In this document: piece by piece, positions 6,183 to 30,992 of the stretch
Position numbering within the stretch: position 1 is the first letter of the stretch
How the letters are laid out: every line of letters starts with the position of its first letter
Origin: Psychrobacter cryohalolentis K5
GTDB taxonomy: Bacteria > Pseudomonadota > Gammaproteobacteria > Pseudomonadales > Moraxellaceae
Reading direction: 5' to 3'
Length of the DNA stretch: 32,000 bases
Assembly (NCBI RefSeq): GCF_000013905.1
Contig: NC_007969.1
Span: 960,001 to 992,000 of the forward strand
Translations under genes and position numbers: made by a program
Notes under the pieces: generated by a model
Database searches by the model: none
Told to the model about the DNA's origin: nothing
What the model saw: only the letters and a program-made list of their open reading frames with translations

Positions 6183-6320
6183 CTACATATATTATCAATC
6201 ATTATTACTGACTGCTCATGCCAATTTTTCATTGGTTCAATAGCTGTTTAAAAAGACAAGCTTATGCCAACGTTAGATAGCTTTATAAATAAGTAATAGC
6301 GACAAACATGGAGTGTTACG

Positions 6321-7787
6321 ATGCTAAAGACGACCCTAAATCTCTCAAACCCAGATTTGATTAAACAGCAGTGTCTTATCAAAGACGGATGGCACGCTGC
6401 CAATGATGATGCCACTATTGAAGTGAGCAATCCATTCAACGGCGATGTTATCGGTACGGTGCCAAGCTTGACGACCGCTGATGTCAATGATGCTGTTACT
6501 TACTCTCACGAAGCTCAAATCACTTGGGCCGCCAAAACCCCACAAGAACGCGCGCAGCTGCTGCAAAAATGGGCAGATCTTATCGATGCCAACAAAGAAG
6601 ATTTGGCCATTATCATGACCGCCGAGCAGGGCAAGCCTTTGGCTGAATCACGCGGCGAGATTGGTTATGCCAATAGCTTTATCCGCTGGTTTGCAGAAGA
6701 AGGCAAGCGTGTTTATGGTGATGTCATTCCTGCAACCAACTCGCAATTACGCTATGTGGTATTAAAACAGCCGGTTGGCGTTTGTGCTGCCATCACGCCT
6801 TGGAACTTTCCAGCGGCGATGATCACGCGTAAAGCAGCTCCTGCACTAGCAGCAGGCTGTACTATCATTATCAAACCTGCGACTGAAACGCCATTTTCTG
6901 CCTTAGCACTCGGTGCATTGGCTGAGCAAGCAGGTATTCCTGCCGGCGTTATCCAAGTTGTGACCGGTAAATCATCTGTTATCGGCGATATTCTTACCGG
7001 CGATGCTCGCATTCACAAACTATCATTCACGGGTTCTACCGAAGTCGGTCGCACCTTAATGGCGCAGTGTGCTCCAACGATTAAAAAGCTGTCATTAGAG
7101 CTTGGCGGCAATGCACCGTTTATCGTTTTTGATGATGCCGATCTTGAAAAAGCTGCTGAAGGTCTAATCGCCTCTAAATACCGTAACGCCGGTCAAACCT
7201 GTGTCTGTGCCAACCGCGTTTATGTTCAAGACAGCATTAAAGATGAATTCTTAGATATCTTTATCAAAAAAGTCGCTGAGCTAAAAGTCGGTAATGGCAT
7301 GGAAGAAGGGGTCAACGTTGGTCCTTTGATTAATGAAAAAGCCTTACAAAAAGTACAAGCGCTACTAAAAGATGCGCTAGACAAAGGCGCAACCCTGATT
7401 GCTGGTGGCAGTACGAATAATGCGTCAGCCCTTGCTTACAACCCAACTGTCATCACCGATATCAGCGCTGATATGGATATTGCCAGCGAAGAGATATTTG
7501 GTCCTATCGCGCCAGTCTTTACTTTCTCATCTGAAGAAGAAGTTATTCGCGCAGCCAACGACACTATCTACGGTCTAGCAGCTTATTTTTATAGTAGCGA
7601 TTATGCGCGTGCTTGGCGTGTGACCGAAGGTCTTGAATATGGCATGGTTGGACATAATACGGGCATGCTCTCAACAGAAGTAGCACCATTTGGCGGTGTC
7701 AAACAATCTGGTTTTGGTCGTGAAGGTTCAAAATACGGCATCGAAGAATATGTTGTGACCAAATACTGGTGTTCTGACGTCAGCTAA
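6321..7787 (+). CDS. gabD: NAD(P)-dependent succinate-semialdehyde (or glutarate-semialdehyde) dehydrogenase
   Basis: 488-aa ALDH-family ORF with RBS GGAG 8 nt upstream. Motifs ELGGNAP and GQTCVCANR (catalytic Cys). Length and sequence are GabD/DavD-like. Confidence 0.9.
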   Translation: MLKTTLNLSNPDLIKQQCLIKDGWHAANDDATIEVSNPFNGDVIGTVPSLTTADVNDAVTYSHEAQITWAAKTPQERAQLLQKWADLIDANKEDLAIIMTAEQGKPLAESRGEIGYANSFIRWFAEEGKRVYGDVIPATNSQLRYVVLKQPVGVCAAITPWNFPAAMITRKAAPALAAGCTIIIKPATETPFSALALGALAEQAGIPAGVIQVVTGKSSVIGDILTGDARIHKLSFTGSTEVGRTLMAQCAPTIKKLSLELGGNAPFIVFDDADLEKAAEGLIASKYRNAGQTCVCANRVYVQDSIKDEFLDIFIKKVAELKVGNGMEEGVNVGPLINEKALQKVQALLKDALDKGATLIAGGSTNNASALAYNPTVITDISADMDIASEEIFGPIAPVFTFSSEEEVIRAANDTIYGLAAYFYSSDYARAWRVTEGLEYGMVGHNTGMLSTEVAPFGGVKQSGFGREGSKYGIEEYVVTKYWCSDVS

Positions 7788-9310: not shown

Positions 9311-9486
9311 TGTCTCCGCTATCGAGATATTAAAAATACTATCGAGCTTCTCGGCTGAGAAGTATGGAAAGATAAACATGAGGGGCAATGCCCTGTTAAA
9401 TAAAACCCTGTTATATAAAATACAGTGTCACTCTAAGTGTAATGAAAAAAGATTCACACGGATGAAGCACGGACAAGGAGCAAGTT

Positions 9487-10929
9487 ATGTCTGAATTAAA
9501 AAAATCGTTAGGGACGCTAGATGTTATCGCCTTAGCATTTGGTGCAATGGTCGGTTGGGGTTGGGTCGTCTTGGCGGGCGGTTGGATTTTATCTGCTGGT
9601 ACTTGGGGTGCGATGTTGGCATTCTTTATAGGTGGGCTGGCAGTGATACTGATTGGTGTGACTTATGCTGAGCTTGCGGCATCGATGCCCATCACTGGTG
9701 GTGAGCATACTTATACGCATCGAGCGCTGGGAGTAAATGTCTCCTTTATCTGTTCATGGAGTATCCTATTTGGTTACTTCTCTGTGGTCGCGTTTGAGGC
9801 GGTCGCTTTGCCTACAGTTGTAGAATATTTTATTCCTAATTATAATCAAGGTTATCTCTGGACCATTGCTGGATGGGATGTTTATGCCACATGGGTAGGG
9901 GTTGGGATGCTAGGCTCCGTCATTGTAACGTGGCTAAATATACGCGGTATGGAAGTCAGTGCATGGTTCCAAAAAACTGCAGTACTAGGTATTTTATTCG
10001 TCGGAACCTTGCTATTTATTGGTGCAGTGCTTTATAACCCTGAAACCTCTACAGCAATACAATCGCCAGCCTTCATTGGTGGTGTCGGTGGCATGATGGC
10101 CGTCATTGTCATGGTGCCCTTTATGTTCGTGGGTTTTGACGTTATTCCACAAGCGGCAGAAGAGATTGATTTAACTCGTCCTAATATCGGTAAGTTTTTG
10201 ATTATCTCTATCGTCGTTGCGGTGATGTGGTATGTGGGTATCGCTTGGAGCGTGGGCACGACGTTGCCGCTTGTACAAGCAGAAAGCTCAACCTTAGCCA
10301 CAGCTGATGCCATGACCAATGCTTGGCAAGGCAAATGGGCAGGTATTTTACTGGTTATCGGCGGTGTACTGGGTATTTTATCAAGCTGGAATGCGTTCTT
10401 AATTGGTGGTAGTCGTCTACTTTATGCGATGTCAAAAGCGCGCATGTTGCCAGCTTTTTTAGGTAAGTTACATCCAAAATACAATACACCTTCGAATGCG
10501 ATTCTCCTCATTGGTGGTTTAGCAACGCTAGCACCTTTATTTGGTCGCAAGATGTTGGTTTGGATCGTTGATGCTGGTGGTTTTGGTATCGTCATTGCCT
10601 ATACCTGTGTTGCTATTTCATTCTTGGTACTACGCTACCGCGAGCCTGATATGGTACGTCCCTTTAAGATACCAGCAGGTAAGCTTGTCGGTATGATAAC
10701 GATTGCGCTTAGCTTTGGTTTATTGATGCTATATATGCCAGGTATGCCATCAGCACTGACTGCTGTTGAGTGGTGGATTTTCTTTGGCTGGACCGTCTTA
10801 GGTATTGTGTTATATAGCTATGCAAGGATTAAATATCCAGGTATTAGTGAATCGATTATGGCAGAAGAGCTACGTGAATTAAAAATCGTCAATCAATTAT
10901 GGTTAAAAGATAATCCACCTAAGCAATAG
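9487..10929 (+). CDS. APC-superfamily amino acid/polyamine permease
   Basis: 480-aa ORF, very hydrophobic with about 12 predicted TM segments. RBS AAGGAG 7 nt upstream. N-terminal LGTLDVIALAFGAMVGWGW is typical of APC transporters. Substrate not deducible. Confidence 0.85.
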   Translation: MSELKKSLGTLDVIALAFGAMVGWGWVVLAGGWILSAGTWGAMLAFFIGGLAVILIGVTYAELAASMPITGGEHTYTHRALGVNVSFICSWSILFGYFSVVAFEAVALPTVVEYFIPNYNQGYLWTIAGWDVYATWVGVGMLGSVIVTWLNIRGMEVSAWFQKTAVLGILFVGTLLFIGAVLYNPETSTAIQSPAFIGGVGGMMAVIVMVPFMFVGFDVIPQAAEEIDLTRPNIGKFLIISIVVAVMWYVGIAWSVGTTLPLVQAESSTLATADAMTNAWQGKWAGILLVIGGVLGILSSWNAFLIGGSRLLYAMSKARMLPAFLGKLHPKYNTPSNAILLIGGLATLAPLFGRKMLVWIVDAGGFGIVIAYTCVAISFLVLRYREPDMVRPFKIPAGKLVGMITIALSFGLLMLYMPGMPSALTAVEWWIFFGWTVLGIVLYSYARIKYPGISESIMAEELRELKIVNQLWLKDNPPKQ

Positions 10930-15663: not shown

Positions 15664-16548
15664 TTAGCGCTGTTTTTTGAGGTGCTGCGCATTTGGCAGG
15701 ACTTGCTTTTCACTCAAGTATTTCCAATAGCGCTGCGGTAAGTATTGCTTGTGCAAACGTGGATTTTTACGCTCTTTGATATTGACGTTGGTAAAATAGC
15801 CTTGCCAAAAACGCTGATAACGTTGCTCATCTTCGCTATGAATGCTGGCAGGATTGCGCAGTACTGCCTCATCAAACTCAGTAATGGTTTGCAGGGCTGC
15901 GGGGCGCTTGGGCGTGCTTTGACTTTTGTTATAATAAATACCATAGCCACGCGCCAAATCATAAATTGCCCAATGCTGATCTTGATAACGCTGACGAAAA
16001 TGCTCTCCGATTAAAGGCAAAACATTAAAATCCGGCTCAACACGGGCAAAGTAAATGTCTTCAACTGTATGCTCAAAGCGTACAAAGGCTTCCATGCGGT
16101 GTTTTTCACGACCGACAGACTTGACCGTTTGCACGAGTTCTAAAACATTGAGATTACCCAAATCATCCATGATATGGCGACTTGGGTAGTTAATAGCATA
16201 TTTCACTACTTGAAATAGAGTAGTGCCTATATTGTCTTTTTCTGACAAAAAACCCCAAAGTAAATTGCGCATACCCGAGCGACCTAGGAGTTGATTCAAC
16301 TTCGTAAGTACTCGTTCGGCATGGTTGGCATTGGTCTCTACACTAATGGCGTGAGCGAATAATGACGGCACATAACAGTCCTGCGCAATAAGCTGTAGCG
16401 ATGTATCGTCCTGTAAGTGATTGGAATAGACGTAAAATACTGCACTGAGCCACCCCTCAAAACTTGGCTCATAAAGTACAATACTGGGCGTCAATTGACC
16501 CAGCTGGTAATTTTGGTTTTTGACAAGTTCTGACAGTGATTGCGACAT
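15664..16548 (-). CDS. DUF4130 / TIGR03915-type putative DNA metabolism protein (partner of the radical SAM protein)
   Basis: 294-aa ORF, 55 bp downstream of the radical SAM gene on the same strand. The segment MEAFVRFEHTVEDIYFARVEPDFNVLPLIGEHFRQRYQDQHWAIYDLARGYGIYY matches my recollection of the DUF4130 core. No uracil-DNA-glycosylase-like domain is present. Confidence 0.75.
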   Translation of the reverse strand: MSQSLSELVKNQNYQLGQLTPSIVLYEPSFEGWLSAVFYVYSNHLQDDTSLQLIAQDCYVPSLFAHAISVETNANHAERVLTKLNQLLGRSGMRNLLWGFLSEKDNIGTTLFQVVKYAINYPSRHIMDDLGNLNVLELVQTVKSVGREKHRMEAFVRFEHTVEDIYFARVEPDFNVLPLIGEHFRQRYQDQHWAIYDLARGYGIYYNKSQSTPKRPAALQTITEFDEAVLRNPASIHSEDEQRYQRFWQGYFTNVNIKERKNPRLHKQYLPQRYWKYLSEKQVLPNAQHLKKQR

Positions 16549-16603
16549 TATTTGTCCTAAGATAACTTCATGATAGTAGCTAAATTATCAATAATTTTGA
16601 TAT

Positions 16604-17872
16604 TTAAAACAAAGCCAACTGTCCACTGCGTTGATCTTTAAATTTCGTCTGCGTTTGCGCCAGCACATATTGACGAAAGTTGTCACAGGTTAAGTGTGCG
16701 AGATGCTCGTTTTTACCAGTAGTTGCAATGAAGTATTTGGCGCGATTGACCGCCGCGCCCATTTTCTTCAAGTGATAAAGTGTGAGCTGATTAAACTTGC
16801 GGGCTTTGACTATTTTTTTAGCCGTTTTTGTACCGATACCGGGAATACGGACAATCATCTCATAACTTGCTGTTTGGATATTGACCGGAAAATGATCACG
16901 GTGGCGGATTGCCCATGCTAACTTTGGGTCGCAGTCCAAATCTAAAAATGGCGAGTCCGGTTCAACGATTTCGTGCGCGCCAAAACCATAAAAACGCATC
17001 AGCCAATCCGCTTGATAGAGACGGTTTTCGCGTATCATTGGCACAGGCGTACCGATAGCTGGCAGGCGACTGTCAGATAGCATTGGCACATAGCCAGAAT
17101 AGTAAACTCGTTTTAAATCATAGTGTTTATAAAAATGACTCGATAGCTGAATCACTTGCAAGTCGGTCTCGTTACTTGCGCCAACAATCATCTGGCTAGT
17201 CTGACCTGCAGGCACAAATTTCGGCGCTTTTTTATGCGTTTTACGGCTCTCACGAATGGTGATGATTTCTTCTTTGACCGTCTCCATCGGTGCTTTTAAT
17301 TGTTCGTGAGATTTTTCTGGTGCCAGTAACGCCAATCCTGATTTAGTCGGAATTTCGATATTGACGCTTAAACGGTCAGCATATAATCCAGCTTCTAATA
17401 ATAATTCTTTTGAAGCTCCGGGAATGGTCTTTAGATGAATATAACCATTAAAACGCTCACGGGTACGCAATATCTTTGCAACCTCGACCAATCGCTCCAT
17501 CGTATAATCGCCACTTTTAAAAATACCTGAGCTGAGAAACAGCCCTTCGATATAGTTACGGCGGTAAAACTGCATAGTTAAATCAACCACTTCTTCAACA
17601 CTAAAAGCAGCGCGCGGGGTGTCATTGCTTTTACGCGAGGTGCAATAAGCGCAATCATATATGCAATGATTGGTCAGCAGGATTTTCAGCAGGCTAACGC
17701 AGCGACCATCTTCGGTATAGCTGTGACAAATACCGGTTGCTGAGGCATCGCCAAGGCCACCGCCTTGGTTTTTCCGCGTACCAGCGGAGGATGAGCAAGA
17801 GACATCATACTTAGCAGCGTCCGCTAAAATATTGAGCTTACCTTGTAGTCGTTCATAATTGATGGTTGCCAT
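16604..17872 (-). CDS. Radical SAM protein, TIGR03916-type putative DNA modification/repair enzyme with a C-terminal helix-hairpin-helix
   Basis: 422-aa ORF. CX3CX2C motif NHCIYDCAYC (Cys70/74/77, nt 17642-17665). Extra N-terminal cysteines at C26, C49 and C58. HhH-like RIPGIGTKTAKKIVKAR near the C-terminus. Confidence 0.85.
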   Translation of the reverse strand: MATINYERLQGKLNILADAAKYDVSCSSSAGTRKNQGGGLGDASATGICHSYTEDGRCVSLLKILLTNHCIYDCAYCTSRKSNDTPRAAFSVEEVVDLTMQFYRRNYIEGLFLSSGIFKSGDYTMERLVEVAKILRTRERFNGYIHLKTIPGASKELLLEAGLYADRLSVNIEIPTKSGLALLAPEKSHEQLKAPMETVKEEIITIRESRKTHKKAPKFVPAGQTSQMIVGASNETDLQVIQLSSHFYKHYDLKRVYYSGYVPMLSDSRLPAIGTPVPMIRENRLYQADWLMRFYGFGAHEIVEPDSPFLDLDCDPKLAWAIRHRDHFPVNIQTASYEMIVRIPGIGTKTAKKIVKARKFNQLTLYHLKKMGAAVNRAKYFIATTGKNEHLAHLTCDNFRQYVLAQTQTKFKDQRSGQLALF

Positions 17873-17957
17873 AAGCGGTATTTACCATGTCAGTAATGAA
17901 AGACTATTTTAGCAAAATTATCGGTAAGTCATTGTATTTATGAGTAAAATATCAATG

Positions 17958-17982
17958 ATAGACGACAACTGTTGTCGTCTAT
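17958..17982. promoter_or_regulatory. Perfect 25-bp palindrome ATAGACGACAAC-T-GTTGTCGTCTAT upstream of the radical SAM operon
   Basis: 12-bp perfect arms read directly. The centre (17970) is 98 bp upstream of the ATG at 17872. Function unknown (operator or hairpin). Confidence 0.5.
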
Positions 17983-18194
17983 TCTGGAGCTGCACTATAC
18001 GATTATAAAAGCGATTAAATTTGAAGTAATATAGTCAGTGAAAAGTAATATCGATACATTGAGTACTGTTAGTATTAATTTTGCTTTCTTTCTTTCTTGC
18101 TTGCTGTGCCTAGGCAGACAGAGACTGCAAAAAATTTATACTAGCAGTACCGTAGCGTTTTTAAGGTATTTTACTATGGTTTATGAATAGCCAC

Positions 18195-18238
18195 AAAAAA
18201 GGCCTTGCCGGCTAGATACCTAGCAAACAAGACCTTTT
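18195..18238 (-). terminator. Rho-independent terminator of the DUF11 secreted-protein gene
   Basis: Minus sense: GGTCTTG-TTT-GCTAG-GTAT-CTAGC-CGG-CAAGGCC followed by TTTTTT. One G-U pair on the minus strand is a C-A mismatch on the plus strand. Confidence 0.7.
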
Positions 18239-18288
18239 ATTAGTTTTAGTATTTCTTAAGTTTTAATACTATAACTTCACTGCCGTAT

Positions 18289-19233
18289 TTATTGAACTTT
18301 AGCGCGTATCACGACAGTCTGTGCAGCTTTAGGACTAAGATTTACCAAGTTCCATTTAAGACCTGAGTAGTTTTCTTTTACCACTACTGTATTGCCAACT
18401 TGTTGGATAGTTTGATAGCTATCGCCACCAGTGGTCGCAAGCGTTGGTAATGGACTGTTTAATGACACCATTCTGACGCCATTTGGCAAAGAAACCATGG
18501 CATTGATATCAGTCACTGGTTGTGCTGTGGTATTGGTATAAACGGTATGATACTCAATCACATCACCAGGCGCGATATGGTTAGCCGGTACTGCAACTTC
18601 ACGTCCATCGCTATTTTTAAGGATTTTCATAACTTTGGTTTGCGCGTTGACCACATCAGGCGTACTAAAGGTTGGTTTGAGCTGTAAGGCTTCTATAGAG
18701 GTAATTGTTGTCACAGGGGTAGTGATCACCGGTGCATTGATTACTGACGTATTTATGACTGGCAGCTGAGTTGCCGTGGTAACAGGCAGTACTTGAGTCG
18801 TCGGTAATACTTGAGTGACAGTACTGGTCGGTACTGCGATGACATCAACACGGCTGCTTTGATTGGTTATTTGGTTGGTCACCGGTACGCTAGTGACAGT
18901 CGCACTACCTTGAGTGACGACAGTACTACTAATACCATTACTGGCTACTTGGCGAACCACGTAGCGCGGTACATTGGTAACCTGTGTCACAGCAAACGGC
19001 ATGCCATCTTGCATACCAATGCTATTAGGCGTAGCGGTAATGACAGCTGTTTTACCATCAGAATACTGCTCGACCACGGTGGTACTAACGCCCGTAGAAG
19101 GTAGAACGGTCACTTCAGTGGCGGCATTGGCAGCAGACATAGCCATAACAGTGCCTGCCAACAGTGCGGATACTGCCGTGAATGTAGCTGTTTTTTGCAT
19201 CACAACGAATGAGCGATTAATAGTGGTGGTCAT
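18289..19233 (-). CDS. Secreted Thr/Val-rich protein with a C-terminal DUF11 (conserved repeat) domain
   Basis: The track ORF reaches 19281. I prefer the ATG at 19233 (AAGGA about 8 nt upstream). Signal peptide MTTTINRSFVVMQKTATFTAVSALLAGTVMAMSAANA/ATE. A low-complexity T/V/Q region (TQVLPTTQVLPVTTATQLPVINTSVINAPVITTPVTT) precedes PGDVIEYHTVYTNTTAQPVTDINAMVSLPNGVRMVS, which fits the DUF11 pattern. Confidence 0.7.
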   Translation of the reverse strand: MTTTINRSFVVMQKTATFTAVSALLAGTVMAMSAANAATEVTVLPSTGVSTTVVEQYSDGKTAVITATPNSIGMQDGMPFAVTQVTNVPRYVVRQVASNGISSTVVTQGSATVTSVPVTNQITNQSSRVDVIAVPTSTVTQVLPTTQVLPVTTATQLPVINTSVINAPVITTPVTTITSIEALQLKPTFSTPDVVNAQTKVMKILKNSDGREVAVPANHIAPGDVIEYHTVYTNTTAQPVTDINAMVSLPNGVRMVSLNSPLPTLATTGGDSYQTIQQVGNTVVVKENYSGLKWNLVNLSPKAAQTVVIRAKVQ

Positions 19234-19300
19234 AATAAAGTCCTTTAAAATGATAATAAGTAACACAAAAATAGAGAACACTTAAATAAGAAAGCCCAGA

Positions 19301-27650: not shown

Positions 27651-28746
27651 ATGGAAATCAATCCGTATCAAGAACGAATTAAAGACTTATCTGAGCGTGG
27701 GCAGGACTTGCGGAGGTATCTTTGACTTCGATGGTAAGCAAGAACGCTTAGAAGAAGTCAATTTAGAGTTAGAAAACCCCGAGCTATGGAATGATCCAGA
27801 ACGTGCGACCAAGATTAATAAAGAAAAAAGTCAGCTTGATGGTGTGATTGATGTGGTGGTGTCGCTTGAAACTACATTGGAAGATGCATCTGCCATGCTG
27901 GAGCTGGCGGTAGAAGCAGAGGATGAATCCTTGCTGGCGGATGTGCAAGCCGAATTAGACAACGCTGAAAAGCGCGTTGCCGATTTAGAGTTTCGCCGGA
28001 TGTTTAGCGGTGAGATGGACCCAAATAATTGCTACTTGGACATCCAGTCAGGTAGTGGAGGTACAGAGGCGCAAGATTGGGCAGAAATGCTACTGCGTAT
28101 GTATACGCGCTGGGCGGAAGCGCATGGCTTTAAAGTTGAAGTGATTGAAGTATCATCAGGTAGTGTCGCTGGTATCAAGTCGGCCACGATTGAGATTAAA
28201 GGGAACTATGCCTTTGGTTGGTTACGTACCGAAATCGGCGTCCATCGCTTAGTGCGTAAGTCACCATTTGATAGCAATAACGGTCGTCATACCTCATTTG
28301 CCGCCGTTTTTGTGTCGCCTGAAATTGATGATAATATCGAAATTGATATCAATCCAGCAGATTTGCGTATCGATACCTATCGCTCTTCTGGCGCAGGTGG
28401 TCAGCACGTAAACACCACCGATTCTGCGGTACGTATCACCCACGAGCCAAGTGGCGTAGTGGTCACTTGTCAGAACGAGCGTAGCCAGCATGGTAATAAA
28501 GCGACGGCGATGAAAATGCTACGTGCTAAGCTCTATGAGCTAGAGATGCAAAAGCGTATGGAATCCCAGCAAGCGGTTGAAGATGGCAAGTCCGACGTCG
28601 GTTGGGGCAGTCAAATCCGCTCTTACGTGCTTGATGACTCTCGTATCAAAGACTTGCGTACTGGCGTCGAAACCTTTAACACCGGTGCGGTACTCGATGG
28701 CGATCTCGATCAATTTATCGAAGCGAGCCTAAAAGCGGGTCTATAA
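27651..28746 (+). CDS. prfB: Peptide chain release factor 2, expressed via programmed +1 frameshift: join(27651..27722, 27724..28746)
   Basis: Frame 0 reads [24 protein letters not shown], then TGA at 27723-27725. The +1 frame continues [12 protein letters not shown]... to 28746. SPF and GGQ motifs are present ([21 protein letters not shown]). Confidence 0.95.
27712..27726 (+). promoter_or_regulatory. prfB +1 frameshift site: internal SD-like GGAGG, then TAT CTT TGA C
   Basis: GGAGG at 27712-27716, slippery CTT at 27720-27722, in-frame TGA at 27723-27725 followed by C. Identical in form to the classical E. coli site. Confidence 0.9.
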
Positions 28747-29864: not shown

Positions 29865-30992
29865 ATGGCGAAGTCAAATCAACCAACCAATATACAAGAT
29901 GTGCGCCATGATTATGAGCACTTGGCGAGCCTCGCAAACTTACGTTATGTCAGCGATACCGATCCTGGATATGGGCGTCGGCGTTCTGGGCGTGGCTTTA
30001 CTTATCGAGATGCCACTGGCAAAACGGTCAAAGATAAAGCCTTGCGTCAGCGCTTTGATGCTTTAGTCATACCGCCGATGTGGTCAGAAGTTTGGATATG
30101 CCAAGATGATAAAGGACATCTACAATCGACAGGTCGAGATGATAAAGCGCGTAAGCAGTATTTATATCATTCAGAGTGGGATCGGGTACGTGACCAAGCC
30201 AAGTTTAATGCCATGATAGGTTTTGCTGAAGCATTGCCCAATCTGCGTGCGCAAGTTGAAAAAGATTTAGAAGCCAAACCCTTATCACGTGACAATGTGT
30301 TGGCAGCAGTGGTCAAATTACTTGAGACCACTTTGATTCGTATCGGTAATAGTCGTTACGCCAAGCTCAATAAAAGTTATGGTTTAAGCACGTTACGCAG
30401 TAAGCATGTCAGCGAAACGGATACTGGACTGGCATTTGACTTTGTCGGTAAAAGTGCCAAAGAGCATCATATAGAATTGCAAGATGAGCGTTTGATTGAC
30501 ATCATCCAAGCGTGCTCTGAGCTGCCCGGTTATCAAGTATTCAAATACTTAGATGAAGAGGGCAATAAGCAAGTCGTTGATAGCGCTGATATCAATGATT
30601 ATCTGCGTACGCATACCTGTGGTAATGAGTGTGAAAGTTATAGCGGCAATTTATACAGTGCAAAAGACTTTCGTACTTGGATGGCAAGTGTATTGGCAGC
30701 AAGCTACCTTTATGATGAGCTGCAAACCAAATCTGGTAAATTGATTTTAGCCAGTGCGCTCGATAGTAAAGAGCGTCAGCAACTGGTGACTGATATGGTA
30801 AAAAGCGTCGCCGATGAGCTCGGCAATACCCCAACGGTCTGTCGATCCTCTTATATCAATCCTATTATTATCCAGCAGTTTTTAGCAGGGGAGTTTTTTG
30901 AGCCTTATAAACAAGCGCGCCGTGGACGTACCAAACGGCATCAAAGCTGTGAAGAGAAGGCGTTACTTGGGTTTTTGAGCGCGCGACAGTAA
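29865..30992 (+). CDS. DNA topoisomerase IB (poxvirus-like bacterial TopIB)
   Basis: 375 aa. The N-terminal LRYVSDTDPGYGRRRSGRGFTYRD...IPPMWSEVWIC...GHLQSTGRDDKARKQYLYH is typical of bacterial TopIB. The C-terminal CRSSYINP carries the candidate catalytic Tyr (codon 30852-30854). Confidence 0.85.
   Translation: MAKSNQPTNIQDVRHDYEHLASLANLRYVSDTDPGYGRRRSGRGFTYRDATGKTVKDKALRQRFDALVIPPMWSEVWICQDDKGHLQSTGRDDKARKQYLYHSEWDRVRDQAKFNAMIGFAEALPNLRAQVEKDLEAKPLSRDNVLAAVVKLLETTLIRIGNSRYAKLNKSYGLSTLRSKHVSETDTGLAFDFVGKSAKEHHIELQDERLIDIIQACSELPGYQVFKYLDEEGNKQVVDSADINDYLRTHTCGNECESYSGNLYSAKDFRTWMASVLAASYLYDELQTKSGKLILASALDSKERQQLVTDMVKSVADELGNTPTVCRSSYINPIIIQQFLAGEFFEPYKQARRGRTKRHQSCEEKALLGFLSARQ

Follow-up and report, generated by a model that had tools for sequence, protein, structure and literature searches.

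To our knowledge, spore photoproduct lyase SplB is the only characterized radical-SAM DNA repair enzyme; it reverses a thymine dimer directly. SplB is SOS-regulated in several phyla, and an operon comprising COG1573 and COG4277 is likewise under SOS control (PMC8565304). COG4277, or TIGR03916, is a radical-SAM protein whose gene is commonly accompanied by one for a DUF4130, or TIGR03915, protein. At least four phyla contain cassette members, a DUF4130 search yielded 2455 representatives at 50% identity, and the family counts among the more widespread "known unknowns" in the bacterial response to DNA damage. Specifically, no substrate, product, or phenotype was found for any family member in the literature searched, in agreement with the initial annotation of the locus described here, which stated that no substrate or reaction had been demonstrated. 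Regulation of the cassette is better defined. In the Moraxellaceae, the lineage that includes Psychrobacter and in which LexA was lost, the WYL-family activator DdaA, described in 2025, recognizes the consensus CGWCA-N5-TGWCG, some 50 bp upstream of where transcription starts (PMC12392091, NAR 2025). A ddaA knockout in Acinetobacter baumannii lowers basal expression of the radical-SAM and TIGR03915 genes more than 2-fold, and EMSA shows the consensus motif bound by a DdaA homolog from Psychrobacter (PMC12392091). Here, we analyze the cassette of Psychrobacter cryohalolentis. Our preferred reading, to which we assign a probability of about 0.55 (a figure that excludes the specific reaction), is that its products would form a damage-induced heterodimer, probably recruited by the sliding clamp, that performs radical chemistry on DNA.

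The window, i.e., the whole 32-kb stretch of DNA analyzed, carries the two genes on its minus strand (Table 1); re-reading the sequence returned the same ORF positions, lengths, shared strand, and 55-bp gap as first described. The 294-aa protein is 100% identical to a Psychrobacter cryohalolentis RefSeq protein (P0001) that NCBI names TIGR03915, and close homologs of the 422-aa protein are named TIGR03916. The Psychrobacter copy is an ordinary, already annotated member of a widespread cassette, and nothing about it is new as a locus. The 422-aa protein is 97–98% identical to other Psychrobacter copies and 59% identical to the A. baumannii enzyme; versions from Bacteroidota are closer, at 64–69%. 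The two genes are probably cotranscribed: AGGA lies 6 nt ahead of the ATG of the 294-aa gene, the 55-bp spacer contains no terminator-like site on the minus strand, and the genes abut or overlap in many orthologous loci. Upstream, the 330-aa gene has a strong terminator, in which a U-run follows an interrupted hairpin of 18 bp (−25.8 kcal/mol, z −5.1, 0/200 shuffles equally stable). With this terminator insulating it, the cassette must have a promoter of its own.

Table 1. Features of the cassette and its upstream region, in window coordinates.
Feature	Position	Strand	Basis
DUF4130/TIGR03915 partner, 294 aa, no UDG domain	15664..16548	-	TIGR03915 248.9 bits, PF13566 167.8 bits
Spacer, 55 bp, with RBS AGGA at 16555-16558	16549..16603	-	Sequence read
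Radical-SAM/HhH protein, 422 aa	16604..17872	-	TIGR03916 661.6 bits; Radical_SAM, HHH_3, and HHH in Pfam
C-terminal QLALF, residues 418-422, ending a variable tail	16607..16621	-	Beta-sliding-clamp-binding-type motif by sequence
Helix-hairpin-helix DNA-binding motif IPGIGTKTAKKIV, residues 343-355	16808..16846	-	Pfam HHH_3 over 330-361, HHH
CX3CX2C radical-SAM cluster motif, C70/C74/C77	17642..17665	-	Sequence read; invariant in homolog alignments
Extra cysteines C26, C49, C58, in block AKYDxSCxSS...GICH..T.DGRC.SLLK	17699..17797	-	Homolog alignments
Putative promoter-core block; the two -10 candidates are ATAAATACAAT (17941-17931) and extended TGcTAAAAT (17914-17906)	17906..17941	-	Psychrobacter conservation
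DdaA box CGACA-ACAGT-TGTCG, core of a perfect 25-nt palindrome (17958-17982)	17963..17977	.	Published-consensus match
Intrinsic terminator of the upstream 330-aa gene	18197..18238	-	RNA fold of 18180-18250(-)

Both family assignments proposed in the initial annotation hold, with scores far above the curated cut-offs. Residues 9–421 of the 422-aa protein cover positions 1–414 of the 415 in the TIGR03916 profile (NCBIfam cut-off 343.5 bits), and the 294-aa protein strongly matches both TIGR03915 (NCBIfam cut-off 112.25 bits) and PF13566 (Pfam cut-off 27). In NCBIfam, no characterized radical-SAM family is a better match to the 422-aa protein: the next-best radical-SAM families all score below 20 bits, and the SplB family (COG1533) gives no match. 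Pfam adds PF04055 (40.4 bits), HHH_3 (31.5 bits; cut-off 27 bits), and HHH (24.1 bits). The reported CX3CX2C coordinates indeed cover CIYDCAYC. The three further N-terminal cysteines are likewise present, and they are invariant across 28 homologs and in distant members at 49–59% identity, including UdgX-linked ones; they probably constitute an auxiliary Fe–S site. The helix-hairpin-helix had been described as C-terminal. The motif exists, but some 65 residues, ending in GQLALF, separate it from the true C terminus. RuvA domains I–II align with residues 252–356 (E 4e-5), and the HhH region is modeled by AF2 with pLDDT >90; around the clusters (residues 20–86) pLDDT is <50 and the model is unreliable. 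Foldseek matches are generic (HydE, LIAS, MiaB, ThiH, viperin; TM 0.36 or less), and spore photoproduct lyase is absent from the top 50 matches of this moderate-quality model. Therefore, structure lends no support to lesion reversal specifically.

The 294-aa partner models confidently (AF2 pLDDT 90.6, pTM 0.84) as a degenerate DHH/DHHA1, RecJ-like two-lobe fold without catalytic motifs, apart from a genus-specific N-terminal extension of about 20 aa that has low model confidence. The top PDB matches all belong to the DHH family, led by PAP phosphatase 8a8k (E 1e-4) and including DhhP, GdpP, RecJ, and Cdc45; E-values run from 1e-4 to 2e-2 and probabilities reach 1.00, with TM only 0.2–0.35. A RecJ-like two-lobe fold for DUF4130 was independently reported in a preprint. 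Pfam DHH finds no match in the protein, and the conserved columns of 61 diverse DUF4130 sequences contain no DHH triad. In those sequences the invariant residues are G32, E148, R157, P172, F184, R187, W193, D197, W248, P271, W275, and E280, mostly arginines and aromatics in the C-terminal half; the N-terminal lobe has G32 as its only invariant position and no invariant acidic or histidine residue. We note that one DUF4130 protein elsewhere carries, as a fusion, a 2H/LigT-type phosphoesterase (59 bits), an arrangement that hints at RNA or cyclic-phosphate chemistry.

Several of these relationships would fit an enzyme that modifies RNA (tRNA or rRNA) or nucleotides in the manner of MiaB or RlmN, with DUF4130 as the substrate-recognition subunit and damage-regulon membership a secondary matter. 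MiaB bound to RNA is among the fold matches of the 422-aa protein, nucleotide phosphatases (PAP phosphatase, GdpP) are among the DHH/DHHA1 relatives, the 2H/LigT fusion exists, and a preprint that leaves the type of nucleic acid open places DUF4130 where MiaB has its TRAM domain. However, RNA-modifying families in NCBIfam all score 20 bits or less, the cassette carries a clamp-type C-terminal motif, and each of three lineages has placed it under a different, unrelated DNA-damage regulator. Moreover, the HhH resembles RuvA, and the UdgX domain that serves as a fusion partner is DNA-specific. We consider RNA or nucleotide chemistry quite improbable, and the RuvA likeness and UdgX fusions make DNA the probable target of the complex.

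Genomic context argues for a two-subunit enzyme. The DUF4130 gene lies directly downstream of the radical-SAM gene in 72 of 80 related loci, and one protein, P0234, is a natural single-chain TIGR03916–TIGR03915 fusion. The expected co-occurrence is thus found, and linkage is usual, but the description of the partner as obligate does not extend strictly to position: seven radical-SAM loci with room for a partner have no DUF4130 within 5 kb. Adjacency, the natural fusion, and a published AF3 model of the pair (ipSAE 0.80; preprint) together make it likely that the two proteins form a heterodimer.

The Psychrobacter cassette had been singled out as a minimal version lacking a uracil-DNA glycosylase (UDG) domain. 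The absence is real: NCBIfam and Pfam give no TIGR03914 or UDG match in the 294-aa protein, and a family-4 UDG probe, validated at 146 bits on PF03167 and by its detection of a real Caballeronia UdgX fusion at E 2e-29, finds no UDG in the whole window or in the 80 related loci. It is not, however, special. UDG-less partners are the norm in the Moraxellaceae/Bacteroidota clade (72/72, 228–347 aa), and almost all of the 150 top-ranking DUF4130 representatives at 50% identity share this form. Nor are the UDG domains linked elsewhere generic family-4 enzymes, as had been supposed. They are UdgX-type (TIGR03914, KRRMH loop), occur as fusions in Alpha- and Betaproteobacteria, and retain GEAPG, KRRMH, and HPS, which we take to match the covalently crosslinking UdgX type.

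The UdgX fusions are one of several observations compatible with a DNA-modifying or mutagenic role in place of repair, in which the enzyme would alter a base and glycosylases or UdgX would process the product, alongside error-prone polymerases in damage-induced mutagenesis. Thymine modification was suggested by Aravind and colleagues, and one paper, which links DUF4130 to radical-SAM and UDG proteins, terms it a "predicted mutagenesis-related enzyme" (PMC3765255). The cassette and translesion polymerases are co-regulated in SOS regulons (PMC8565304), and its clamp motif is typical of translesion polymerases (PMC3716654). Nonetheless, a fused or neighboring UDG is missing from the whole Moraxellaceae/Bacteroidota clade, so the system does not inherently include a glycosylase step, and DUF4130, without DHH catalytic motifs, has no obvious active site. 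We judge a DNA-modifying or mutagenic role clearly unlikely.

The regulatory evidence is consistent with the damage-induced expression that the preferred reading calls for. The initial annotation suggested that the host may belong to a lineage thought to lack canonical LexA, which the published loss in Moraxellaceae bears out (PMC12392091), and regarded regulation of the cassette as open. That view gives way to a perfect, positionally conserved DdaA box here and to the ddaA dependence of the orthologous A. baumannii pair (PMC12392091). The box is the only perfect CGWCA-N5-TGWCG in the 32 kb (0.12 expected) and lies 91–105 nt upstream of the radical-SAM ATG. It is found at −105/−106 from the start codon in 9/9 Psychrobacter loci, at −130 in M. 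osloensis, and, again perfect, at −93 in the A. baumannii ortholog; its half-sites are invariant while spacer and flanks vary in the locus alignment. The adjoining putative promoter-core block is conserved among Psychrobacter, whereas no alignment is possible farther upstream than the box. If TACAAT serves as the −10 element, the box center would lie near −46, in keeping with the published distance of about 50 bp; the other candidate would put it at −71. Control of the Psychrobacter operon by DdaA after damage is very probable by analogy with the published Moraxellaceae data. The box is absent from three loci: two Moraxella loci have none in the 160 nt upstream, and an unclassified Acinetobacter locus has the gene pair and no box; therefore, DdaA control is not universal in the family.

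Other lineages use other regulators. The 68 loci from outside the Moraxellaceae, each about 11 kb long, contain just two DdaA-type boxes, both at unrelated positions. Of these loci, 19 carry a Bacteroidetes SOS box, CTAA-N5-TTAG, within 55 nt of the start, compared with 8 of 2497 background windows (0.3%), and two alphaproteobacterial loci have a GAAC-N7-GAAC repeat at −28 and −43. Judged by these motifs, the comparison shows three unrelated regulators (DdaA, a CI-like LexA in Bacteroidetes, and alphaproteobacterial LexA) each putting the cassette under damage control, a pattern that argues strongly, if indirectly, for the cassette's importance following DNA damage.

DdaA, beyond repair genes, controls CRISPR-Cas, RM, and Zorya (PMC12392091), and the cassette could on that account be an anti-phage or foreign-DNA system whose enzyme damages or marks invading DNA. 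tblastn homologs occur in 10 records filed as phages, and phage-tail-like genes adjoin the radical-SAM gene in two loci. However, the "Acinetobacter phage" records are 240 kb long and match at 59.1% identity, just as the chromosomes of A. baumannii do, which makes bacterial DNA their probable nature. PADLOC gives no match for either protein and PHROGs gives none, the window neighbors are housekeeping genes (GT4, aguA, greA, carAB), and across the genus the radical-SAM protein shows 97% conservation, unlike fast-turnover defense genes. A defense function thus appears extremely improbable.

The C-terminal QLALF peptide provides a potential link between the enzyme and the replication fork. Clamp-binding peptides have the reference consensus QL[S/D]LF, with QLGLF in Pol II and QLNLF in UmuC (PMC3716654). 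A penta- or hexapeptide of this form occupies the last 14 aa of the radical-SAM protein in 62 of 83 loci, compared with 0/527 C-termini of other ORFs and 0/2429 windows of the enzyme body, and 115 of 119 close homologs have the motif. By column, conservation is 1.00 for Q, 0.89 for L, 0.43 for x, 0.80 for L, and 1.00 for F, versus 0.2–0.7 in the preceding linker. QLxLF-type tails are also seen in Clostridia, Fusobacterium, and Burkholderiales; in the Psychrobacter model the tail has pLDDT <50. From this pattern we lean, if only slightly, toward recruitment of the radical-SAM protein to the beta sliding clamp; the best-ranked clamp-binding literature names no radical-SAM enzyme as a client.

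The peptide could instead tether the radical-SAM subunit to DUF4130, leaving the remaining model the same. The notion arises from P0234, the one natural fusion found, which lacks the motif, as one would anticipate if joining the chains covalently removed the need for a tether; the subunits are also predicted to share a very large interface (3666 A2; preprint). Against a tether, the peptide agrees residue for residue with the clamp consensus (Q, L, x, L, F) and lies where such motifs usually do, at the C terminus, and five of six radical-SAM genes with no adjacent DUF4130 retain it. Moreover, it is invariant although DUF4130 evolves fast (43–51% identity where the enzyme has 75–80%), which points to a target that itself changes slowly, for example DnaN. 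We think a tether unlikely. Clamp recruitment, extended further, leads to the speculative and somewhat doubtful proposal that the bacterial sliding clamp has its first radical-SAM clients in the TIGR03916 enzymes, the damage-induced heterodimer riding on DnaN or docking to it at stalled primer termini and reversing or converting a blocking lesion in the single-stranded template by means of its 5′-deoxyadenosyl radical. If so, translesion synthesis and the covalent shielding of abasic sites that the UdgX domain adds in other lineages would be joined by a third way of acting at the fork.

The preferred reading, i.e., damage-induced radical chemistry on DNA by a clamp-recruited heterodimer, can be laid out as follows. 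DNA damage would lead DdaA to bind CGACA-N5-TGTCG upstream of the operon's own promoter, yielding a bicistronic transcript from which the 422-aa and 294-aa proteins would be made and assemble. Three elements could target the heterodimer to DNA: the HhH module, the DUF4130 subunit, and the QLALF peptide. DUF4130, with a RecJ-like fold minus the phosphoesterase motifs, probably threads or holds a single strand or a nucleotide, and QLALF probably attaches the enzyme to the beta sliding clamp and would thereby position it at primer termini or stalled forks beside translesion polymerases. The [4Fe-4S] cluster on C70/C74/C77 would cleave SAM to a 5′-deoxyadenosyl radical that abstracts hydrogen from the DNA substrate; a second cluster is probably held by C26/C49/C58. 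For the reaction itself, our best guess is that radical chemistry directly reverses or converts a lesion that blocks replication, in template or single-stranded DNA, a setting in which excision would be an unsafe form of repair. Our confidence in direct reversal on single-stranded DNA in particular is low. In other lineages, a fused UdgX-type domain would add covalent capture of uracil or abasic sites to this machinery.

The family-wide clamp-type motif and the RecJ-like, inactive partner narrow the hypothesis space for the cassette. The Moraxellaceae include A. baumannii, whose damage-induced pathways feed antibiotic tolerance and the evolution of resistance.

How, then, does the cassette stand relative to known systems? 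From the TIGR03916/TIGR03915 (COG4277 plus DUF4130) pair it shows no material difference: it is full-length in both families, has the same gene order and adjacency, and belongs to the UDG-less sub-architecture. With the COG1573–COG4277 operon of Alphaproteobacteria, Verrucomicrobia, and Bacteroidetes, and with M. smegmatis UdgX, it has in common the radical-SAM family, damage regulation, and DUF4130 as a shared module, whereas their UdgX/TIGR03914 domain is absent here and within 5 kb in the 80 related loci. It resembles the DdaA regulon in its perfect box upstream of the promoter, as in the orthologous A. baumannii operon; ddaA dependence is known from the A. baumannii orthologs, and some Moraxellaceae copies have no box. 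The beta-clamp clients Pol II, Pol IV, and UmuC share its peptide form, terminal position, and damage-inducible expression, the clamp likeness of the radical-SAM protein being known from its sequence. The DHH/DHHA1 phosphoesterases (RecJ, PAP phosphatase, GdpP, Cdc45) have the two-lobe fold of DUF4130, but their Asp/His motifs (DxD, D, DHH, D) are not conserved in it and identity is about 10%. MiaB/RimO, LipA/LIAS, and HydE are the best, though weak, fold matches of the 422-aa protein and likewise have three extra N-terminal cysteines; the 422-aa protein, at TM 0.36 or less and with a differing C-x22-C-x8-C spacing, belongs to none of these families. Finally, SplB offers a working analogy for radical lesion reversal, although the 422-aa protein is not a member of its family by sequence or fold, and spore photoproduct lyase presumably lacks the HhH, the three extra invariant cysteines, the clamp-type tail, and the obligate-looking partner that distinguish the cassette enzyme.

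The cassette belongs to a known family, of which it is an ordinary and previously annotated member. Its radical-SAM/HhH gene (whose product we call the enzyme) and its DUF4130 partner gene lie where the initial annotation had placed them, on the same strand and 55 bp apart. An AGGA ribosome-binding site precedes the ATG of the DUF4130 gene by 6 nt, and a terminator scan found no terminator-like site on the coding strand of the spacer between the genes. The family assignments likewise hold. Specifically, the 422-aa protein reaches 661.6 bits against TIGR03916 (cut-off 343.5), and it scores above 20 bits on no other radical-SAM NCBIfam family, characterized ones included; its Pfam domains are Radical_SAM, HHH_3, and HHH. 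The 294-aa protein reaches 248.9 bits against TIGR03915 and 167.8 bits against DUF4130, and it is 100% identical to a P. cryohalolentis RefSeq entry that carries the name 'TIGR03915 family putative DNA repair protein'. The CX3CX2C motif noticed earlier is real (C70/C74/C77), as are the three extra cysteines, C26, C49, and C58, which are invariant among homologs down to 49% identity.

Features of the cassette and of the region upstream of it
Feature	Position (nt)	Strand	Remarks
Radical-SAM/HhH gene	16604..17872	(-)	422 aa; TIGR03916
DUF4130 partner gene	15664..16548	(-)	294 aa; TIGR03915
Candidate extended -10, TGcTAAAAT	17906-17914		Alternative to TACAAT
Candidate -10, TACAAT	17931-17936		Would put box centre near -46
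DdaA-type box CGACA-ACAGT-TGTCG	17963-17977		Core of a perfect 25-nt palindrome; matches CGWCA-N5-TGWCG
Intrinsic terminator of upstream gene	18197-18238	(-)	-25.8 kcal/mol, z -5.1

The two genes co-occur across genomes; together with the family scores, this means that none of the three refuting conditions set out in the initial annotation holds. A DUF4130 gene lies immediately 3' of the radical-SAM gene, on the same strand and often abutting or overlapping it, in 72 of 80 loci encoding homologs; seven loci have no DUF4130 gene within 5 kb, and one of the remaining loci is cut by a contig end. The genes flanking the cassette are unrelated housekeeping genes (a GT4 glycosyltransferase, aguA, a PuuR-like regulator, greA, carAB, and others), and the GT4 neighbor is syntenic only within Psychrobacter. 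Thus, the cassette constitutes a two-gene unit.

Individual loci vary in arrangement. In two Psychrobacter loci (L003 and L028, ~6267-6460), the spacer is ~190 nt and carries a long inverted repeat, versus 55 nt in the window. In a Methylococcales MAG (L015, 6218-9540), the DUF4130 gene is split by a ~2.4-kb insertion, likely a mobile element (matches at 6218-6904 and 9328-9540). A TnpB gene lies between the radical-SAM and UdgX-fusion genes of Azospirillum (L084), and a short-chain dehydrogenase gene lies downstream of the radical-SAM gene in a Psychrobacter MAG (L007). In two further MAG loci (L073, 6317-8770; L077, 6918-9323), a radical-SAM gene without DUF4130 is followed by phage-tail-like genes encoding an endosialidase chaperone domain and a minor tail protein.

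The window holds three other genes of note. A 330-aa gene at 18289-19281(-), with a strong terminator, encodes a Thr/Val-rich protein with a hydrophobic N-terminus that is 51-74% conserved among Psychrobacter and has no Pfam or NCBIfam match. An RF2-like ORF (27697-28746(+); PCRF and RF-1 domains) begins with GTG and contains, 24 nt inside, CTTTGAC (27720-27726). This heptamer is probably the well-known +1 programmed frameshift site of prfB, in which case translation would begin farther upstream in a different frame; the window has 13 copies of CTTTGAC (3.8 expected). A bacterial type IB topoisomerase (29865-30992(+); Topoisom_I catalytic core and Top1B_N_bact), uncommon in bacteria, is unrelated to the cassette.

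The cassette had been regarded as a special minimal version lacking a UDG-like domain. The absence stands: a probe shown to be valid found no UDG match in either the window or any of the 80 loci. The special status does not. Partner ORFs in the 72 loci all measure 228-347 aa, too short for an added UDG domain, and, among the 150 top-ranking 50%-identity representatives, nearly all are standalone proteins of about 250-290 aa. Thus, the UDG-less form is standard in the Moraxellaceae/Bacteroidota clade. The partner found in Alpha- and Betaproteobacteria takes the form of a ~480-aa TIGR03915+TIGR03914 fusion. NCBI's present name for TIGR03914 is 'UdgX family uracil-DNA binding protein', and the Paracoccus domain retains GEAPG, KRRMH, and HPS. 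The representative search also returned P0171 (438 aa), in which DUF4130 carries a C-terminal 2H/LigT-type phosphoesterase domain (2_5_RNA_ligase2, 59 bits), a third accessory-domain type besides UdgX that hints at cyclic-phosphate or RNA-end chemistry. Within Psychrobacter, DUF4130 identity is about 82% versus 97% for the enzyme, and against Moraxella it is 43-51% versus 75-80%; by this measure, DUF4130 evolves much faster than its partner.

Regulation of the cassette, described initially as open, has a probable answer, and this is the chief correction to the initial annotation. Because a strong intrinsic terminator closes the upstream gene, the cassette must be transcribed from a promoter of its own. 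DdaA is the WYL-family activator that replaced LexA in Moraxellaceae; its site is CGWCA-N5-TGWCG, located about 50 bp upstream of the TSS, and a Psychrobacter homolog bound this motif in EMSA (PMC12392091). The window contains a single perfect match to the consensus (0.12 expected), upstream of the enzyme gene. A perfect box is present in 9/9 Psychrobacter loci, where it sits at -105/-106 relative to the start codon; it sits at -130 in Moraxella osloensis and, as CGTCACCTCATGACG, at -93 in Acinetobacter baumannii. Three Moraxellaceae copies (L010, L048, and L081) have no box. In the 68 non-Moraxellaceae loci among the 80 surveyed, only two DdaA boxes were found, both at unrelated positions. 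The Psychrobacter alignment contains a conserved block downstream of the box. If TACAAT is the -10, the box position would be compatible with the published one.

The scan flagged the palindrome as a terminator, a reading we rejected: the upstream gene has its real terminator elsewhere, and only the half-sites (5+5) are invariant across species. The spacer and the flanks, with the outer arms, vary, which indicates a protein-binding site. Two one-mismatch DdaA boxes, at 16543-16557 (overlapping the DUF4130 start) and 28154-28168, were dismissed as chance matches; about 2.1 are expected per window, and the former is unconserved in other Psychrobacter. The Psychrobacter/Moraxella enzyme is 64-69% identical to Bacteroidota and Methylococcales versions versus 59% to that of A. 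baumannii (L082 and P0378 compared). This raises the possibility of two cassette lineages within Moraxellaceae, each with DdaA boxes, explained either by horizontal transfer or by the regulon having recruited them independently.

Other lineages present other damage boxes. The Bacteroidetes non-canonical-LexA box, CTAA-N5-TTAG, lies no more than 55 nt from the start codon in 19/68 non-Moraxellaceae loci (the 68 being almost all from Bacteroidota), versus 8/2497 background windows, in agreement with the published SOS regulation of the COG1573-COG4277 operon (PMC8565304). The other Bacteroidetes SOS motif, GGA-N5-TCC, is not enriched (5/68 loci versus 5.2% of background windows). Two alphaproteobacterial loci carry GAAC-N7-GAAC, which we take to be the alphaproteobacterial LexA box, at -28 and -43. 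Boxes of three regulators in three lineages suggest that three unrelated regulators control the same cassette.

Solved relatives at the sequence level were found for neither protein, save for the HhH/RuvA similarity: enzyme residues 252-356 align to RuvA domains I-II. The DUF4130 model, a confident one (pLDDT 90.6, pTM 0.84), has as its best PDB matches exclusively DHH/DHHA1 proteins, namely PAP phosphatase, DhhP, GdpP, RecJ, and Cdc45. Most of the residues that are invariant in DUF4130 are Arg or aromatics, in the C-terminal half. The fold matches independently support an August 2026 preprint, which reports the same fold and also predicts a high-confidence heterodimer with a narrow channel fitting a single strand. 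Both the predicted complex and the damage regulation of the cassette in this bacterial family have already been published. The AF2 model of the enzyme is mediocre (pLDDT 67.5) and matches generic radical-SAM barrels alone; residues 20-86, which include the possible C26/C49/C58 cluster site, fall below 50. An SplB-like identity was rejected, given no family match and no spore photoproduct lyase among the top 50 fold matches.

The enzyme ends in GQLALF-COOH. Homolog tails are variable up to a terminal Q (conservation 1.00), L (0.89), x (0.43), L (0.80), F (1.00). The penta- or hexapeptide form occurs within the last 14 residues in 62/83 loci, versus 0/527 C-termini of other ORFs in the same loci and 0/2429 enzyme-body windows; most misses are near-variants (QLSLL, QASLF, QYAIEW). 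Close homologs carry a QLxLF-type motif in 115/119 cases, and it is seen too in Clostridia, Fusobacterium, Burkholderiales, and Alphaproteobacteria. The clamp-type motif is a family-wide lead, not one peculiar to the window. The peptide could instead tether DUF4130: the one natural single-chain TIGR03916+TIGR03915 fusion, P0234 (669 aa), has no C-terminal QLxLF motif.

Family identity, gene linkage, regulator boxes, DUF4130 fold, and terminal motif are demonstrated, and a mechanism can be sketched alongside them. DdaA would activate the operon after damage, and the two proteins would pair as a heterodimer. Recruitment of this complex to clamp-marked sites on DNA would fall to the HhH module, the inactive RecJ-like partner, and the clamp-type tail; a cluster-generated 5'-deoxyadenosyl radical would then act on a DNA lesion, possibly assisted by a second cluster on C26/C49/C58. 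Our best guess at the reaction, with a probability of roughly 0.3, is that a blocking lesion in single-stranded template DNA is directly reversed or converted. Mutagenic base modification and RNA or nucleotide modification are less well supported, as is anti-phage action, for which neither PADLOC nor PHROGs returned a match. A literature search that included alternative family names found no functional study of the family.

Ten records filed as phage (H26-H35) encode homologs. Two are 240-kb 'Acinetobacter phage MD-2021a' records that look like bacterial DNA, with 59.1% identity, the same as A. baumannii chromosomes; unannotated faecal 'Bacteriophage sp.' contigs are also among the ten. The gene occurs in 164 plasmid-filed records. 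Most of these are large chromids of Alphaproteobacteria (Phaeobacter 58, Paracoccus 15, Azospirillum 11), and some reach chromosome size (A. baumannii, 3.7-4.1 Mb).

A literature search found no paper tying radical-SAM enzymes to the clamp. The beta-clamp-binding motif is QL[S/D]LF, with QLGLF in Pol II and QLNLF in UmuC (PMC3716654), and the terminal QLALF of the enzyme shares both the form and the position of the motif in these clamp clients. DUF4130, for its part, is predicted to resemble DHH/DHHA1 proteins in fold, but differs from them in lacking conservation of the DHH catalytic motifs.
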